Positions 263-9,119 of a stretch of 11,076 bases of DNA are shown here, in pieces. Source of the stretch: Candidatus Hodarchaeota archaeon (lineage in GTDB: Archaea; Asgardarchaeota; Heimdallarchaeia; Hodarchaeales; Hodarchaeaceae); contig JAEOTC010000061.1 in NCBI GenBank assembly GCA_016840035.1, positions 1 to 11,076 of the forward strand, written 5' to 3'. Made by a program: the position numbers and the translations under genes. Position 1 is the first letter of the stretch. Each line of letters opens with the position of its first letter. Below the pieces are notes generated by a model. The model ran no database searches and was not told the DNA's origin. It saw only the letters and a list, made by a program, of their open reading frames with translations.

Positions 263-3244
263 TTACTGATTATATTGAGTAAAATCTGGAAAAAAAATTA
301 ACGGTTTGTACTCGTTTTTCAGAAATTTTATACGATTGTTTATATCTCTATATTCTAATGAATCTTCTAGTAACAAACAGAGAGATTTGGTATGAAGTTT
401 GTGAGCTGATTCAAAGGTCATCCACTGATTGTTGTAAAATAACATTTTTTGAAAGATCTTCTTTTTTACAAGGACCCCTCGTAACCATCTGACTAGTGAA
501 TCCCTGGGAACATAATAAGGCAGCCTATCATCGTCATATCGTTTCTGAAAAGACAAAGGAGTAATTTCACCGCTTACGATTACTTCACATAATGTTAAAC
601 GAGAGAGAATCCTCCCTACTTCTTCAAGATCCAGATGACCAGAACGCCCAGTTTTGTCTTTAGCAGTATGCACAAATAAAGGTATAGTTTCATACCCTAA
701 ACCTTGTTTCGCATTCCAGATACGTAATTGATTTCGTAACCTTCGATTAACACAATTTAATGCAGTATCAAATGGTGTATACCCTCCCATGAAATCCACA
801 CCTTTTTTCTCTTCTTTATTAACTCGTCGAGCAACACTACGACCGTAAGGACGTTGAATGAGTGGATTATTCTGATCTTGAATTGCCTGTATAAATTTAC
901 GAACTCCCTCAGCAAAAGGTCGTGAAAACCAGGCTTCTAAAGCAGATACTTGACGGAAAGATCTTAAGGATACATCTTGATAATAATTTTCTAATCTTGT
1001 TGGACATTTCAGAAGAATTTTGTTCATCCAGTAATAATATCGATTAGCTAACCAATTTTGATTATTTAAACGAGCAATTTCCGTCAGACAATAGGTCGCG
1101 TTCATTAGTGAAATCATCAAACTTCGGACATGAAGCTGTTGGAGCGCTTCACGAACTCCTGGAAGTTCCATCGTTTCTTTGATTGCCTGTGTAGGTTCTT
1201 GTAACACTCCTTTTGTTGACGAATGAATAACATCAACTCCCCAAGATTTAAAGATTTTATTTAAACGCGGTTTCCCCACGTTATAGACTGTTCGGAGCTT
1301 ATTAAGAGGGTAGGTGTCCATTTCTTTTATTCGCGGTCGTTTGATTTGAAGAATGGGAATTGTATTATTAAGTAGTGTTGCTTTATCCTCTCTTGCTAAA
1401 TTAGCGTTGTCTGGACGATAATTAAATTTTAGATGTAGATTATCATCAGCCAATGTTTGAAGCATAAAATTCCATTTTTCGGTGTCAACAAAGGTTAGTT
1501 TATCAGTAGAGTGAATAATTTTATTAATCAGTAGTTGTTTTTGGCTCTGGTCGTAATAAACGTAATCATTCTCGTGGATGTAAAGGTAACCATTTTTATT
1601 TTCTGAAAAACGCTTAATTTTCTCAATTTGAGACCGAAAAAGTTGTTTCGGTTTTAGTACTGGTTCTTCTACTTTGGTAAAATCATGTTTTGTCATTGCT
1701 TCAATCAGTAGTTCGTGGAGTCCATGTTCTAGAAAAATTCCTTGCTGCTCAATATTTTGATATTGAAAGACGTTATTTCTCGTCATTTCTGGGGAAATAT
1801 ATGAGTAATTAGCACCACACTCACAGGTAACAGATGAGTCAAAAGCAGGCACTTTCTCTAAGGATTCATGACAAAATATACAAGCAATTCTATCTCCTCT
1901 AACTGCTGATAACTGGATTGAAAAACCTCCTTTCAACTCTAAAAAGGAGCATGCTACTTTTGTAGAGAATATTGGCTTAATTCGATCATTGTAGAGTGAT
2001 TTTAAATTGTCAGGAATGGTGATATGCCCAAACGAGACTAAGTATTCAAGTCTTTTAAAAAATAAACAATCAATCTTAGTATGGGAACTATAATGGTTAC
2101 AACACACACAGGAAAAGTTGATATTTTTTCTTTGTTCACCTTGAGATCGATCTATCAGATTACTAGTGATATTGAATACTAATACACGTCGTTTCTTATT
2201 CGGATATACCTTGATATACTCCAACATCAAATGCTTACGAATGAAGGTAACTAACTCTAGTGGTTTTATCCCAACCTTGTCGAATTGCTTTAGAGATTCA
2301 GTTTTAATAAGAAATATTTTATCTCGATTCGTGATTTGTTTTTTAAATATCCAAGTAATAGCTCGTGTATATTGAGAATCATGTACTGCTTTAACAGCAT
2401 CAACCTTTTTTTCATTGTCCCTGAATGTGACTTTTGCTTCTCTTGCATGAACTAAAATATCGAAAAATGGAGGATCATAATTTTTTGTTGCATTCTTATC
2501 GGTAATTGAAACATACGTTGTTATCCAATCATATATTTCAGTCAATACCTTCAACAGGACTAACCCCCTCTCCCTATGAGGTTTTTTTGGTAAGATGAAC
2601 GGTTCTTTCGTTGGTTGATGAATAGGGATACCTCTTCTTTTCATCATTTGTTTAGGTCTTGATTCAAGCTGTAGGTAAAGCTGATTTAGATGATCCTTGA
2701 GTAAGGGTCGAATAGATGTTTTTAAATAATCACGGTCTAAATACCAGTCAAATGCTTGACAAAGGACATCTTGAAAGGTTTGAAGTTTCCATCCAGAGTA
2801 CTGATCTCTTAGGATAGAAATGTACCACTTACTACAAGATATTAGTAAGAGTTCAAAGTCTTTAATACCAATTTTTGATGTCTGATATCTATCAAAAATA
2901 AATTTATGCTTATTATGGTATAATTGAAGATAATCCAAGATTTTCAGGTTGTATGCAAGAAGAAAGGTGCCAAGAATTGATCTTTGATAATATTTACGTT
3001 TAAGAAGCCCAGCCAATCGTAATAACAATATTACTTTTTTAATAAAATCCAGATTTACTGCTGAATCAAAATAGTCGATCCATAATTTCCGGAGATGGTG
3101 AAAGAATTCTTCTTTTGATTGACTTAATCGACTGGAATTCAAGATTGAATGGAGAAATGATTCAATATTTTGGTCTGACTGGAACAATGAAGCAAGAAAT
3201 GACCTAGAGATCTCAGTTTCCAACTGAACTGTCAATCTAATCAC
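263..3244 (-). CDS. cas1: Large (993 aa) multidomain protein with Zn-binding motifs and a C-terminal divergent Cas1-family integrase domain
   Basis: The C-terminal part follows Cas1 motif order: VSALE(770)AWFSRPF (cf. LxGxEGxAAxxYF), YGRSVARR...TPFDTALN (cf. GRxRR...DPxNAxLN), GLGYETIPLFVH(859) (cf. GLDPxxGFLH), D(872)LEE(875)VGR (cf. DLMEEFR), then GEITPLSF. Cys clusters CVCCNH (~379) and CIFCH...CECG (~455-476). GTG start with an in-frame stop shortly upstream (3275-3277). Confidence 0.8.
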   Translation of the reverse strand: MIRLTVQLETEISRSFLASLFQSDQNIESFLHSILNSSRLSQSKEEFFHHLRKLWIDYFDSAVNLDFIKKVILLLRLAGLLKRKYYQRSILGTFLLAYNLKILDYLQLYHNKHKFIFDRYQTSKIGIKDFELLLISCSKWYISILRDQYSGWKLQTFQDVLCQAFDWYLDRDYLKTSIRPLLKDHLNQLYLQLESRPKQMMKRRGIPIHQPTKEPFILPKKPHRERGLVLLKVLTEIYDWITTYVSITDKNATKNYDPPFFDILVHAREAKVTFRDNEKKVDAVKAVHDSQYTRAITWIFKKQITNRDKIFLIKTESLKQFDKVGIKPLELVTFIRKHLMLEYIKVYPNKKRRVLVFNITSNLIDRSQGEQRKNINFSCVCCNHYSSHTKIDCLFFKRLEYLVSFGHITIPDNLKSLYNDRIKPIFSTKVACSFLELKGGFSIQLSAVRGDRIACIFCHESLEKVPAFDSSVTCECGANYSYISPEMTRNNVFQYQNIEQQGIFLEHGLHELLIEAMTKHDFTKVEEPVLKPKQLFRSQIEKIKRFSENKNGYLYIHENDYVYYDQSQKQLLINKIIHSTDKLTFVDTEKWNFMLQTLADDNLHLKFNYRPDNANLAREDKATLLNNTIPILQIKRPRIKEMDTYPLNKLRTVYNVGKPRLNKIFKSWGVDVIHSSTKGVLQEPTQAIKETMELPGVREALQQLHVRSLMISLMNATYCLTEIARLNNQNWLANRYYYWMNKILLKCPTRLENYYQDVSLRSFRQVSALEAWFSRPFAEGVRKFIQAIQDQNNPLIQRPYGRSVARRVNKEEKKGVDFMGGYTPFDTALNCVNRRLRNQLRIWNAKQGLGYETIPLFVHTAKDKTGRSGHLDLEEVGRILSRLTLCEVIVSGEITPLSFQKRYDDDRLPYYVPRDSLVRWLRGVLVKKKIFQKMLFYNNQWMTFESAHKLHTKSLCLLLEDSLEYRDINNRIKFLKNEYKPLIFFPDFTQYNQ

Positions 3245-3259
3245 TTGTTTTGTACAGTA

Positions 3260-3270
3260 ATTATATTTAA
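3260..3270 (-). promoter_or_regulatory. Candidate archaeal TATA box (TTAAATATAAT) for a leaderless cas1-like transcript
   Basis: Lies 16-26 nt upstream of the GTG at 3244, and no SD motif precedes that start. The AT-rich background limits specificity. Confidence 0.35.
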
Positions 3271-3308
3271 TCGGTTATTTTGTATGTTACACTTGAATCA
3301 GGAGGATT

Positions 3309-3402
3309 AGCACTGAATTATTGTTAGACTACAGTGATAAGTTCTGTATTCGAAAACAGCAGTAGAACCTTTCAATAGCCAAACAGACAATAATCCAGCG
3401 CT
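3309..3402 (-). ncRNA. Candidate structured ncRNA: ~94-nt imperfect hairpin with a UUCG tip, containing AUUGAAAG
   Basis: Manual fold of the minus strand: 16-bp uninterrupted stem AGCGCUGGAUUAUUGU/ACAAUAAUUCAGUGCU, 6-bp stem GGCUAU/GUAGUC, 10-of-11-bp stem UGAAAGGUUCU/AGAACUUAUCA, and tip UGUU-UUCG-AAUA. The six G-U pairs would be A-C mismatches on the plus strand. Confidence 0.55.
3314..3332 (+). repeat. Imperfect direct repeat, copy 2 (TGAATTATTGTTAGACTAC), upstream of the cas1-like gene and within the 3' arm of the hairpin
   Basis: 17/20 match to 241-260. Confidence 0.45.
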
Positions 3403-3411
3403 TTTTGATGC

Positions 3412-3450
3412 TTTAAAGACTTATAAAGGAATAAATGTGTATAATTATTT
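3412..3450. promoter_or_regulatory. Cluster of TATA-like boxes in the divergent spacer (TTTAAA 3412-3417, TTATAAA 3421-3427, minus-strand TTTATAAG 3427-3420, TATAATT 3440-3446)
   Basis: Positioned so that it could drive the plus-strand operon and/or the minus-strand hairpin RNA starting near 3400. Confidence 0.35.
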
Positions 3451-3479
3451 AGTATTCATTCATTACGGAGTTATATATA

Positions 3480-3932
3480 ATGGATTCAAAATTTAATAAA
3501 AATTTTTCTACTCATTCTATTCGTACTACATGTCAAGAATTGCAACTTAGACAACTATTCTACCAAGAGAATATTTCTTTTGAATTTCAAAAGCAGTATT
3601 CTTTGCCTGATCGTCAATATGTTGTTGACTTTCTTCTCCCTCAACAAACCATTTTAGAGTGTTCTTTTACTAAGATGGACAAATATCATGTCGCGTTTCG
3701 CAATAAAGCGATTACTTTAGAAGCGAAAAGCTATCAATTGAAAAAATATTTTCCTGATCTGAATATTTGGGTACTTCTTGAGACACATCGCTCTATCTTA
3801 GAAATGTTTCATCGTACTCTAATCCAATTAATGCCATCAGTAGATCAGATCTTTTTTTCCCAAAATGAGCTAAGAGAGTTTCTCCATCTCTATCGCTTTT
3901 CATCTATGAAATCAGAGGAGGTGGTTCTATGA
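3480..3932 (+). CDS. PD-(D/E)xK-fold nuclease, Vsr/DUF559-like (150 aa)
   Basis: The pattern QELQLRQLF...ISFEFQKQY...YVVDFLL...ILEC matches the E...F-x-x-Q...Y-x-x-DF...x-E layout of DUF559/Vsr-like endonucleases. GGAG SD at 3467-3470. Confidence 0.7.
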   Translation: MDSKFNKNFSTHSIRTTCQELQLRQLFYQENISFEFQKQYSLPDRQYVVDFLLPQQTILECSFTKMDKYHVAFRNKAITLEAKSYQLKKYFPDLNIWVLLETHRSILEMFHRTLIQLMPSVDQIFFSQNELREFLHLYRFSSMKSEEVVL

Positions 3933-4648
3933 GGAATACTGATGAAAAAACAATTGATATGCAGAATTTCTCCTTTTATGAATACCAATTTCCATTATCT
4001 GAATGGATCCAAGGGTCTTATTCGTTAAAGGAAATGATCTCTATTGTTACGAAGAATCTAACAATTCTTCAACAATTATATGCCTGGGAAAATAAAGGAT
4101 TCGTTTTTTCTAAACCCACACGAAGTCTCCGCAATACATTTGTGTTTTGGATCGATGAATCGCTTATTGAATCAGTTCGTGAATTTAGGAATATTCGTGG
4201 TGGACTTCCAGTATCAGATATGAAAGATAGCTTAGCTGATTCTTCAACCTACAAAGGAAAGAAAGTTTCTCCAAGACCCCGAAGAATTTTGCTAGATATC
4301 GGTTGTGATTCGCCTTCTCTAGTCAAACACTTAGAACAATTGGGACTAGAAGTTATCAGCTTATGGGAATATGTAGCTGATTTAATTCATCATGAAATTA
4401 TTGATCAATGTCACGCTCAATACATTGACCTCTTAGTATCAACTAATGAACGGGTATTAATGCCAACAGAGGAATGGATTACTTATCTGATGCCCCATCG
4501 AACACGATTATTTACTGTTCCCAGGGATATTGTCTCCAATTATGAAAATCTGGCTATAGTGATTAAACAGAAAGCTTTCCAAAAACGGCGCTACAGTAAG
4601 TGGTCAGAAAAAAACAGTCAACAAAGAGTGTTAAAGAGAAGGGGGTAA
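3929..4648 (+). CDS. Protein with an unknown N-terminal domain and a C-terminal PIN-like domain (DUF5615/Mut7-C/VapC45-like), active site partly degenerate (239 aa)
   Basis: RILLDIGCDSPSLVKHLEQLGLEVISL...HEIIDQCHAQYIDLLVSTNERV resembles KFLLDENL...LxxxLRxxGxDVxxV...DxEIxxxAxxExRxLLTxDxDF. ATGA overlap with the upstream gene; strong SD GAGGAGGT at 3915-3922. Confidence 0.6.
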   Translation: MRNTDEKTIDMQNFSFYEYQFPLSEWIQGSYSLKEMISIVTKNLTILQQLYAWENKGFVFSKPTRSLRNTFVFWIDESLIESVREFRNIRGGLPVSDMKDSLADSSTYKGKKVSPRPRRILLDIGCDSPSLVKHLEQLGLEVISLWEYVADLIHHEIIDQCHAQYIDLLVSTNERVLMPTEEWITYLMPHRTRLFTVPRDIVSNYENLAIVIKQKAFQKRRYSKWSEKNSQQRVLKRRG

Positions 4649-4655
4649 ATCAATA

Positions 4656-5558
4656 ATGGCAAAGAGTACTTCAAAACGATCGAGTGGTAAAACTGAATCC
4701 CCGTTAAAGACCATTATTCCTGACCAAACAATTTCCATTCCACGCAAGATTCTAAAAGTAAAAGCATTTACTCCTATTTGTAAGCCACTAAATGGATCAT
4801 TACCTAGTTCAAAAATCTCACACCTGTTAAAGCTATGGACTTTTGAATATCAGTATAAAAATGGAAAGGAAACAAAGACAAGCACTGCTACTGCTTATAT
4901 GATAAAAGGTTTAAGAGGAGCATTACGACATCAAGTAATGACACATTGTAAAGAACGGGGATTAGAAGTATGCCACACAAGTGATAAAGAAACAGATCAA
5001 AAAGGGAATTCTCTTTTACCAGAAGGATTTCATCTACTAGGTAGCTGTACCGACAGTGATGAATGCATAGTGCATGCAGTATTTGGATCAAAGGGAAATT
5101 CAAGCAAAATCCGCGTTTCAGCTAAACCGATAGCGAATATTAGCCATAAGACATTCCAAGCACCAGTCAGCATTCAGAATGTACAAATAGCAACTGAAAA
5201 ACGAGTAGCACTAACTTTTGAAGGAAAAGCAATACAGGACTTCGGTGAAAGGTACCTTGCAGGAGAGTTCGAGTTTGAAATTGATATAACAAAATGCACC
5301 CCTGAAGAAATGGGAATGATAATAGAAGCCACAATGTACATGCATAAACTAGGAGGGGGGTATAACGCAGGATATGCAGAACTACAAATAAAGGGGTTGG
5401 ATTTAGTAAAATCTACAACAAACAGACAACCAAAAATTACTGATCAAAATAGCTTCACCATTGAAGAGGAGATCGACGAAGAAAAACTACCAGAAGAATT
5501 CACCAATGCACTCACAGCATGGAAGAAACATCTAAGAGAATACAAAGAAGTAAAATAA
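4656..5558 (+). CDS. cas7: Cas7-group RAMP protein (Csm3/Cmr-like fold), 300 aa
   Basis: RAMP hallmarks in order: beta1 ILKVKAFTP, IKGLRGALRH (cf. SSLKGALR), Cys/His cluster and CIVHAVFGS...SKIRV (cf. CxVCxLFGS...GRL), GEFEFEI, and glycine-rich loop LGGGYNAGYA. Starts 7 nt after the previous stop, with an SD-like AAGGGGGT. Confidence 0.8.
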   Translation: MAKSTSKRSSGKTESPLKTIIPDQTISIPRKILKVKAFTPICKPLNGSLPSSKISHLLKLWTFEYQYKNGKETKTSTATAYMIKGLRGALRHQVMTHCKERGLEVCHTSDKETDQKGNSLLPEGFHLLGSCTDSDECIVHAVFGSKGNSSKIRVSAKPIANISHKTFQAPVSIQNVQIATEKRVALTFEGKAIQDFGERYLAGEFEFEIDITKCTPEEMGMIIEATMYMHKLGGGYNAGYAELQIKGLDLVKSTTNRQPKITDQNSFTIEEEIDEEKLPEEFTNALTAWKKHLREYKEVK

Positions 5559-5572
5559 GGAGAAATAGGTAC

Positions 5573-6457
5573 ATGGGCAGTCAGGAATGTAGATTAGTGG
5601 TAAGAGGACAATTATTAACTCCAATGATAACTAAAAAGATAAAATTCACACTTCTTGGGTGTAAAGCCACAATCATTAATCCACGAAGGCGTTACTACCT
5701 AAAAATTAACGCCTCAAAACCCATGTATCCATATTCCTATATCAGTTATCTGGGAAAAATCGAAATAAAAGTAAAGAGTAGCTCATTAACGGTTCTGAAT
5801 CAAAAGTGTAAATTATTACTTCAAAAAACACATATAGGAAGATATCAAAGCGAAGGATTAGGAGAAATTAAATGGAAGGGAGGATATATTGATAATTATG
5901 TTACAAAATCAGAAAAACATGTAAAAGAACGAAAATTACGTATTAGAAAAGGACTCCCATTAAAATTAACCTTAGAACAACAAAAGCTGCTGAAATACGC
6001 ATTACTCCACGATTTCTTCCACACACCCAGACATCAGTCAAAAATCTACCAGGAACCACAAATAAAAGACCAACAACTGGTAGAGAAAATAAAAAAACAT
6101 CATGAGAAGACGACCAATCCAATGATTAAACAATTTCAATACTACGACAGACTAGCAGCTAGTATAACACGAAAAATACGATCACCAATAATAAGTAGAT
6201 ATAACTGGCAAGCAAAGAAGAGCAGAAGAAGAATTAATTTCACAAAACTAGCAAAAGAAATACAGGAGGTGGCAGAAACAAATATATGGAATTTATACAG
6301 ATATATGTATGAAAGCAAGGAACTAAGATTGGTAAATGAATCAATGACTTATGGACATACAACACTACGAAATCACTTATTAGTAATAGCAAATTTGATA
6401 GTGCAGGACTTTGGAAACGAAAGTAGACAAAAGAACAAGCACAAAAAAAGCAGATAA
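5573..6457 (+). CDS. Fusion of a minimal Cas5-like RAMP domain and a Cas10-type circularly permuted HD nuclease (294 aa)
   Basis: N-terminus has beta1 LVVRGQLLTP and G-loop IGRYQSEGLGEI. C-terminus has ALLHDF (6008-6013), HH (6098-6103), YDRLAA (6146-6148) and TLRNHL (6374-6376). The ATG at 5573 is preferred over 5519 because it follows AGGAG (5558-5562) and avoids overlap with cas7. Confidence 0.75.
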   Translation: MGSQECRLVVRGQLLTPMITKKIKFTLLGCKATIINPRRRYYLKINASKPMYPYSYISYLGKIEIKVKSSSLTVLNQKCKLLLQKTHIGRYQSEGLGEIKWKGGYIDNYVTKSEKHVKERKLRIRKGLPLKLTLEQQKLLKYALLHDFFHTPRHQSKIYQEPQIKDQQLVEKIKKHHEKTTNPMIKQFQYYDRLAASITRKIRSPIISRYNWQAKKSRRRINFTKLAKEIQEVAETNIWNLYRYMYESKELRLVNESMTYGHTTLRNHLLVIANLIVQDFGNESRQKNKHKKSR

Positions 6458-6535
6458 TGGCCGTTAACCGCTTGAATGAAAGTAATAGGGCTGGAAAGCG
6501 GAGTAGAGGATTATTTGTGGAAAACCTAGAAACGA

Positions 6536-6937
6536 TTATAGATCTTCGTACGTTTCGTCAATCTCAGTGGGTTCCTCATCTTCTTCACTTGCCATCTCTT
6601 CCATGGCGGCTTTAACTTTCAAAACATACTCTGAATAGCGCTCTAGTAAACGTTCAACGTCATCATCTGATAAACGCTCTCTTGTCACAGCTTTGACATC
6701 AGTAGCTGTTTTGGGATTAAGATTAACAAGTTGGACAGCTAGTAATCTTGTCAATTCAAAATCAGATTGTAACATTTCTAAGACTTCTTCAGAGTAGGCA
6801 GCATTTTTTGAAAGTTTCTCTGCATGCTGAGCTGTTACACGTTGAACATAGTTTATCCCCGACTCCTCTCTCATCTGAAGATATTCGTAAACTTGCCCTA
6901 ATGGTATTGGCTTTTCTTCCTTGACCTTACGTACCAA
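6536..6937 (-). CDS. rpo4: DNA-directed RNA polymerase subunit Rpo4 (RpoF, Rpb4 family) with an acidic C-terminal tail
   Basis: EEKPIPLGQVYEYL, YVQRVTAQHAEK and AVQLVNLNPKT match RpoF, and the gene is in its canonical position after rpl21e. TTG start with an upstream GGAG. Confidence 0.9.
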   Translation of the reverse strand: MVRKVKEEKPIPLGQVYEYLQMREESGINYVQRVTAQHAEKLSKNAAYSEEVLEMLQSDFELTRLLAVQLVNLNPKTATDVKAVTRERLSDDDVERLLERYSEYVLKVKAAMEEMASEEDEEPTEIDETYEDL

Positions 6938-6981
6938 CTTTTAAGATCTCCAAAAACAATTTTCCTATTCTCTCAAGATCA

Positions 6982-7272
6982 CTACTGGGCCTTCAAGTGC
7001 TCTGGACGTGTTATGATTTTTTTGTAGCTGTTTCCATCTGTAACACGTACAACATAAGCTTGACCGCGTTTTTCTAAAACGACTCCCGTTTTACCATGAA
7101 ATCGCCTATGTGGACGACTTTTTTGGACGCTAGGTTCAATGACAATATTAACCTTTGAATTTATCTCATATTCTGCTAAAGAGCGAGATAATGATGGTAA
7201 ACCTCTTTTTCGTGGGTGTTTCGAAAAGATTCTGCGTGTGCGAAAGTTAGTACCCTTTGATTTTCTGACCAT
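6982..7272 (-). CDS. rpl21e: 50S ribosomal protein L21e (eL21)
   Basis: MVRKSKG..RTR, PSVQKSRPHRRFHGKTGVV..KRGQAY, RPEHLK. The ATG at 7272 fits the family N-terminus; alternative TTG at 7287. Confidence 0.97.
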   Translation of the reverse strand: MVRKSKGTNFRTRRIFSKHPRKRGLPSLSRSLAEYEINSKVNIVIEPSVQKSRPHRRFHGKTGVVLEKRGQAYVVRVTDGNSYKKIITRPEHLKAQ

Positions 7273-8898: not shown

Positions 8899-9119
8899 TT
8901 TAAATGTCCTTCTTCCTATTCCAAGGAAATCCATTTTCCGTGCAATTTCCTCTAGTACAAAGGTTTGAAAAGCTATTTGTGGAGGCTTTTCAGCAATTCA
9001 AGCCTGAGAAGAAAGGGCAATTATTTGTTTCGAGTTTCTTCTCAAGCTTTCAAAGAATATATTTCCTCTATTCATTTACATCTGAATTGAGTTCCAAGCT
9101 TCAAAGGTGGGTACCAAAT

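Follow-up and report, generated by a model that had tools for sequence, protein, structure and literature searches.

A strand-specific hairpin beside the divergent promoter of an Asgard ARAMP cassette, a possible 5′ leader of its giant cas1 gene

The minus strand at positions 3309-3402 of the window, meaning the whole 11,076-nt stretch of DNA analyzed here, contains a 94-base hairpin that is real and strand-specific, located between the gene for a giant Cas1 protein and the RAMP operon of an Asgard RAMP (ARAMP) cassette. This element begins about 26 nt downstream of a conserved TATA-like box, lies on the cas1-sense strand, and has counterparts at the same place in related loci. A structured cas1 leader, one of the roles suggested when the hairpin was first flagged, fits these properties best: the hairpin would be the folded 5′ end of a putative promoter-proximal non-coding leader or transcript that acts in cis on cas1, an explanation to which slightly less than even confidence is attached. 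The role of RNA component of the Cas5/Cas7 complex, also suggested at that time, is weakened on five counts that are given below.

ARAMP systems are array-less CRISPR derivatives with a distinct Cas1 (Makarova et al. 2020, as relayed by PMC8730458 and PMC12669027). The 2025 classification of CRISPR systems treats both ARAMP and HRAMP as array-less and type III-derived (PMC12669027), and a 2022 review describes the ARAMP mechanism as enigmatic (PMC8730458). Within these two reviews, which are the scope of the comparison made here, no ARAMP RNA, leader, promoter motif, or regulatory element is mentioned.

The hairpin occupies a 235-nt gap between a 993-aa minus-strand gene (263-3244) and a four-gene plus-strand operon (3480-6457), and its reported position between cas1 and the RAMP operon holds, with the Cas1 call resting on a Foldseek match of the modelled C-terminal 354 aa. 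The model of these last 354 residues (pLDDT 83.6) has a Cas1/casposase fold and matched solely Cas1 and casposase structures (E 1e-6, prob 1.0, TM about 0.5), and searches of Pfam, NCBIfam, and PDB sequences with the 993-aa protein did not recognize Cas1. The distinct Cas1-family integrase that is expected of ARAMP is therefore predicted here at fold level only. The N-terminal ~640 aa (residues 1-639), which are outside the modelled part, contain conserved Cys pairs.

The RAMP operon opens with a gene for a 150-aa protein (3480-3932, plus strand) predicted to have a PD-(D/E)xK nuclease-like fold; its model (pLDDT 82.5) gave weak Foldseek matches to T7 endonuclease I, XisH, Hef, and Can2 nuclease domains. 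According to profile searches, the rest of the operon (3929-6457, plus strand) encodes a 239-aa protein, a 300-aa Cas7-like RAMP protein (Pfam RAMPs 4e-6, above the cut-off; PADLOC Csm3 2.6e-6), and a 312-aa weak-HD protein, whose HD match of 0.0018 is below the cut-off. A predicted Cas7-like RAMP protein, a putative Cas5-like/HD protein, and a nuclease, with an array absent from the contig, place the cassette with ARAMP on gene content, and the likeness extends to the giant, distinct Cas1 and to the Heimdall-group Asgard host. Heimdallarchaeota B3_Heim supplies the closest named protein. Set against this shared inventory, the hairpin and the conserved promoter motif are additions to the described system and not a defining part of it. 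Other genes near the cassette encode L21e, Rpb4/RpoF, Pus10, and SRP54 (Pfam) and mark the window as archaeal.

The family is small: a search of 1.84 billion representative proteins gave 41 matches, and about ten of these are full length. Repeating the protein search with the alignment as the query returned the same nine proteins again, and protein patterns derived from the Cas7-like protein found no match in a scan of genome contigs. A long form of ARAMP Cas1, about 1280-1430 aa with ~290-430 additional N-terminal residues, is encoded at L006, L011, L016, L020, and L022 and is represented by P0012, P0014, P0016, and P0017; these loci keep the divergent promoter layout, and their leader is just 45-55 nt with a small hairpin. 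At loci of the L004 type, the gene divergent from cas1 is called as at least 1104 aa (L178/L179, 1-1418, minus strand) and starts with a homolog of the 150-aa nuclease, which may reflect fusion of the whole RAMP operon into one protein. A TnpB-type gene (OrfB_IS605 / Cas12f-like TNB) lies at 2544-3782 on the minus strand of L027, a short metagenome contig, 470 nt downstream of a 5′-truncated ARAMP cas1.

The minus-strand sequence described in the sequence-only reading is present from 3402 to 3309. It folds into a 16-bp closing stem, P1 (3387-3402 paired with 3309-3324), followed by P2 (3372-3380/3327-3337; 6+3 bp), P3 (3364-3370/3339-3345; 7 bp), and an apical region at 3346-3363. The nested stems that had been proposed are recovered in part: the 16-bp and 6-bp stems stand, but the 4-bp top stem capped by UUCG does not, as the apex of the minimum free energy (MFE) structure has only 2 weak pairs and its loop is not a C(UUCG)G tetraloop. 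An extension of the fold through AUCA/UGAU to 3297-3409 is absent from the predicted structure as well. Pairing probabilities in the closing stem are 0.83-1.0 when the whole leader is folded.

The MFE of the minus-strand 94-mer in RNAfold is -32.1 kcal/mol (z -4.37), a value equalled by 0 of 200 dinucleotide shuffles, and a second shuffle run gave z -5.5, whereas the plus strand of the same interval reaches only -18.3 (z -2.30). The asymmetry persists under DNA folding parameters (z -2.95 for the minus strand versus -0.48 for the plus strand). Among the 34 pairs of the hairpin are 17 A-U, 11 G-C, and 6 G-U pairs, and both this pair table and the folding of the two strands bear out the six G-U pairs and the strand asymmetry of the sequence-only reading. 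The G-U asymmetry favors one strand and not RNA in particular, because G-T wobbles form in DNA too. In a scan of 880 overlapping 100-nt segments on both strands of the 11-kb window, the segment over the hairpin has the third lowest MFE, and the exact 94-mer falls below all 880 (lowest -28.7). The hairpin sequence is present as a single copy in its own genome, and the description of it as unannotated holds in the sense that no Rfam 15 covariance model matches anywhere in the window at E≤1. The lowest-MFE segment of the scan, 8951-9050 (plus strand -28.7; minus strand -26.8, z -4.35), falls within an RNA methyltransferase gene, just beyond its overlap with the Pus10 gene.

Upstream of the hairpin, the cas1-proximal intergenic regions of 16 distinct loci with Cas1 identities of 28-65% share an ordered set of promoter elements. 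In alignment A3, which covers 76 nt ending just within the hairpin, an ATAT core is followed by TTTATAAA, two bases, TTTAAAG, 8-9 mostly A residues, and AGCGYTGGAWT, the last of which is replaced in two groups by TCTTTGGAAAA or CCACTGGAAAA. Across the 16 loci, neither the three AT boxes nor the G-A of YTGGA varies. In the window, the two adjacent TATA-like boxes on the minus strand (3411-3427) are TTTATAAG at 3420-3427, which is the upstream box of the sequence-only reading and lies 18-25 nt upstream of 3402, and TTTAAAG at 3411-3417; both are nearly invariant in relatives. They precede the start-proximal motif AAAA-AGCGCTGGATT (3392-3406, minus strand), which supplies the 5′ strand of the closing stem. 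The third conserved AT box, with the ATAT core (3430-3440, plus strand), likely serves the divergent operon beginning at 3480 as its TATA box. Among 400 Asgard genomes, the pattern of boxes and motif was found only at ARAMP loci, with the remaining matches at the level of a reversed-pattern control, and a DNA pattern scan of genome contigs produced chance matches in bacteria only.

Transcription in archaea usually starts about 26 nt from the TATA box. With TTTATAAG as the box, this spacing therefore predicts a start at ~3398-3402, which are the first paired bases of the hairpin. In addition, the first paired base of the stems lies 0-4 nt ahead of YTGGA, and none of the stems reaches back into the A-rich stretch, a pattern that fits an RNA with its 5′ end at this point, ~26 nt past the first TATA-like box. 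From the TATA distance and the upstream limit of the stems, we infer that transcription starts within the motif. TTTAAAG could be the working TATA box instead, in which case the start would fall inside the 5′ arm.

Under the leader explanation, TBP and TFB would bind the TTTATAAG box, transcription would start at or within AGCGC (about 3398-3402) and proceed towards the giant cas1, and the first ~94 nt would fold back, with the extreme 5′ end locked in the 16-bp stem. The hairpin would then act in cis on cas1 expression, and possible effects include stabilization of the RNA 5′ end, stalling or attenuation of read-through into cas1, interference with the cas1-proximal promoter, and provision of a binding site for a cassette protein. 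The bacterial ompA and aprE leaders are 5′-terminal stabilizer stem-loops of mRNAs, and they resemble the present element in having a helix at or near the (here inferred) 5′ end, in keeping its position while sequence varies, and in standing ahead of the regulated gene. The comparison differs in that the host here is an archaeon with other RNases. A further difference is that its first 11 nt are conserved in sequence, which would be unneeded for a pure stability element.

The arrangement just before cas1 complicates a simple leader. A TATA-like box, TTAAATATAA (3261-3270, minus strand), starts 26 nt before the cas1 GTG (3244), and a similar box ~25 nt before the cas1 start is also found in L017, L021, L023, L024, and L182. 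Such boxes are a feature of the window and of most loci lacking a Shine-Dalgarno site, and Group C and L013 have a clear GAGGAG or GAGGG site before cas1 instead. The cas1 gene may therefore be expressed as a leaderless mRNA from its own second promoter, and the hairpin RNA, instead of being the cas1 leader, may form a unit of its own. As a transcription unit placed in tandem upstream, the element could modulate cas1 through read-through, attenuation, or promoter interference. In loci of the L004/L178 type, 19 nt separate the motif from the called cas1 start downstream. In the window, the TATA-like box before cas1 lies between two 17-nt direct repeats (3238-3254 and 3268-3284; 82% alike and 30 nt apart), which a regulator may bind. 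Some loci have a partial second copy of the promoter block of AT boxes and motif 77-146 nt downstream, immediately ahead of cas1 (L023, 408-439 and 485-516; L017, 3672-3693 and 3818-3839), an arrangement that fits tandem promoters.

Attenuation by a terminator of familiar type finds little in the window itself, where no oligo-U run occurs at or after the 3′ arm and the only T4 run lies in the apical loop; a scan for bacterial-type terminators also found none, with a model that is bacterial and a host that is archaeal. A T5-6 run is present at +97 to +113 in 7 of 13 loci, with the window and L003 among those without one, and L005 has a T8 run at +44 that could end the RNA before the 3′ arm. An "anti-SD-like" CCUCC after the hairpin was considered as a further feature and rejected, as it is not conserved and its Group C counterpart, AAUCAC, is the 3′ strand of an inner stem.

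Most loci with a short Cas1 use the motif as the 5′ strand of a hairpin of ~46-116 nt, and the hairpin sequences differ by lineage. Across lineages, statistical support for a hairpin at the same place is strong in two, moderate in others, and absent in some. Pairing of the 5′ 22 nt with the region from +33 to +150 was compared with 500 shuffles in 13 loci, and six passed (window p 0.002, L005 0.002, L180 0.008, L007 0.012, L017 0.024, and L013 0.028). L024 (p 0.09) and L003, the closest relative of the window (p 0.18), were marginal, and L021, L023, L026, L182, and L004 were at chance level. Whole-hairpin z values were -5.5 for the window, -6.0 for L180, -5.1 for L024, -3.2 for L023, -2.7 for L007, -2.3 for L005, and -2.2 for L017, with values from -0.9 to +0.2 for L003 (-0.6), L182, L013, and L021. 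The hairpin of L180 is as strong as that of the window (-30.1) and, except for the motif, unrelated to it in sequence. A shorter hairpin of 47 nt, in which three G-U pairs are conserved, occurs in L023 and L024, and three G-U pairs are retained in 3/3 members of Group B. The sense-strand duplex was better than the antisense duplex in 10/11 loci, and in 11/13 when the comparison was repeated with two loci added; the palindrome of Group C is equally good on both strands.

The covariation check proposed for homologous spacers had a mixed outcome. Pairing exceeds chance in some loci, as described above, but the arms are near-invariant within groups and true covariation counts are therefore tiny, at 1-2 within-group double changes in 3 sequences. 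No consensus pairs emerged from a cross-group MAFFT alignment, in which the anchor was misaligned. Among close relatives the hairpin interior is homologous and differs by point changes only.

These data also bear on whether the hairpin has any function of its own. It might be a chance inverted duplication in an AT-rich promoter region, with an unusually good copy in the window, and this is regarded as improbable though worth weighing. Hairpin size (0, 47, or 94-116 nt) and sequence are highly variable, L003 is no better than its shuffles, and a 10-bp helix arises in about half of the shuffles of these AU-rich leaders; a cruder test based on ungapped helices was passed solely by the window, L005, and L180. 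A chance origin accounts less readily for two lineages whose hairpins, in the same place, reach z of -5 to -6 and whose arm extensions past the shared GGAWW core are wholly different, as they are between groups generally. It also sits poorly with the distance to the best pairing partner, which clusters at 95-121 nt in 9/13 loci over a searched range of 33-150, and with the G-U bias towards the sense strand. A Fisher combination with one median p per lineage gave about 0.01, a figure drawn from few lineages.

A separate small RNA is an unlikely explanation of comparable standing. The hairpin would here be an RNA of ~95-115 nt with its own conserved promoter, serving as a trans partner (scaffold, guide, or regulator) of the Cas7/Cas5-HD complex or of the N-terminal part of Cas1. 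Its appeal lies in the conserved promoter and in the 5′ motif, which could be a protein handle; in the cas1-proximal TATA-like boxes, which suggest that cas1 has a promoter of its own; and in the T5-6 runs of seven loci, which could terminate a discrete RNA. The reviews, moreover, give ARAMP no RNA partner (PMC8730458, PMC12669027). The more specific proposal of a trans-acting ARAMP RNA with the 5′ motif as handle for the giant Cas1, through its N-terminal zinc-finger-like region, or for the Cas5-HD/Cas7 complex, is more doubtful still. If true, a trans-acting hairpin RNA would connect integrase and effector in what has been regarded as an RNA-less system.

Several observations count against such a partner and, with it, against the Cas5/Cas7 role in the sequence-only reading. 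Hairpin presence tracks cas1 and not the RAMP genes: the long-Cas1 loci and those of the L004/L178 type retain RAMP genes and are missing the ~100-nt hairpin. The interior changes by point mutation and not by replacement, and the region proposed as a guide is buried in helices. No target was found in the genome or in IMG/VR, where two 22-mers had no match, and matches elsewhere in the genome reach 14-17 nt at best, which is about the level of chance. The supposed repeat end, ATTGAAAG, is not conserved. Finally, a far better conserved and covarying hairpin directly follows the HD gene. Because the leader hairpin is missing in some RAMP-bearing loci, has an interior that varies by point changes, lacks repeat character, and has no detectable target, and because the tail hairpin after the HD gene fits the role better, the leader hairpin is probably not the RNA partner of the effector. 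Known small RNAs such as CreA/CreR, scaRNA, and tracrRNA (PMC8730458) are similar in that a small RNA gene lies in a cas locus beside a cas promoter. They differ in that the present hairpin has no repeat-derived part and no complementarity was found to the promoter, the tail, or another site; neither the repeat-like handle nor the promoter complementarity of a crRNA-like regulator was seen.

The tail hairpin lies on the plus strand at 6458-6513, directly after the HD stop codon, and consists of GCCGTT, a stem (6468-6473/6496-6501), a conserved loop of 22 nt, and the box AGTAGAGGATTA. The stem is 8 bp in the consensus and 6 bp in the window. In an alignment of 14 sequences, compensatory double changes occur at 8/8 stem pairs and 87.6% of cells are paired, versus 58% in shuffles; the covariation score is 0.85, versus 0.29 for shuffles and 0.09-0.19 for slid controls, which is far better than for the leader hairpin. 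The folding energy of the tail is unremarkable (z -0.7). Both elements belong to the same cassette, both are outside Rfam, and both are candidate RNAs, but the tail is on the opposite strand, covaries strongly, and is dispersed, whereas the leader hairpin is single copy, thermodynamically stronger, and far less conserved. No cognate relationship between them was detected: local alignment of leader and tail was at chance level (p 0.5), their duplex energy had no cognate advantage, and a 5x5 test placed the cognate pairing 54th and 76th of all 120 pairings. The conservation and covariation of the tail hairpin make it a likelier candidate than the leader hairpin for the RNA partner of the Cas7/Cas5 proteins. 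Fragments comprising the last 50-140 codons of the HD gene plus the tail are scattered through genomes of the genus (L195, L196, L198, L199, and others), and a second copy of the HD 3′ end and tail is found in the window's own genome on contig C224 (about 6730-7066, minus strand), a distribution suggestive of either spread of the cassette's right end or its persistence as a remnant.

Recognition at the DNA level, as a cruciform or single-stranded hairpin bound by the Cas1 integrase or the adjoining PD-(D/E)xK nuclease, has clearly less to recommend it and is judged quite unlikely. A single-stranded DNA hairpin as integrase substrate was the third role in the sequence-only reading. Casposases and CRISPR integrases act at inverted or palindromic repeats adjoining an AT-rich leader, and it is these enzymes that the Cas1 domain resembles in Foldseek; the 150-aa protein weakly matches junction-resolving nucleases (T7 endonuclease I, Hef/Mus81). 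The Group C palindrome, as good on either strand, and the better-than-shuffled folding of the minus strand under DNA parameters also suit such a site. The six G-U pairs of the window and the three of Group B become A-C mismatches on the opposite strand, however, so that one arm of a cruciform would pair poorly. Searches for direct repeats, target-site duplications, and extra copies found none, and since the interior is homologous among close relatives, apparently nothing has been inserted there.

A lone CRISPR repeat or one-unit mini-array giving a crRNA-like RNA, suggested by a 5′ arm that ends in a ATTGAAAG handle (3369-3376), an octamer identical to the 5′ tag of many archaeal crRNAs, can be dismissed as very improbable and is refuted as far as sequence tells: the octamer reads ATTGGAAG in L003, is absent from all other groups, and occurs 508 times in its own genome; a 16-mer around it is at control level in 22 genomes of the genus; a k-mer scan found no array in the 4.3-Mb assembly, which is 87% complete, so that arrays elsewhere are possible; and the hairpin is an inverted repeat only, with no second direct copy and no spacer-like match. 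The locus does resemble a CRISPR leader with its first repeat in having an AT-rich conserved promoter, a palindromic unit at a fixed distance, and an adjoining Cas1 integrase gene, but it differs in being one inverted repeat without direct repeats, spacers, turnover of the interior, or further copies.

A leader hairpin by itself is an ordinary kind of element, and the hairpin at 3309-3402 is best regarded as a fresh example of the familiar structured 5′ leader in a poorly understood system. Together with its promoter motif, it is an addition to the picture of ARAMP given in the reviews (PMC8730458, PMC12669027), and it offers three features of one ARAMP subfamily that can be tested: the conserved divergent promoter, the start-proximal motif, and a hairpin that keeps its position while its sequence changes. 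The hairpin that was flagged is probably not the long-sought RNA partner of ARAMP, a role for which the tail element is the better fit.
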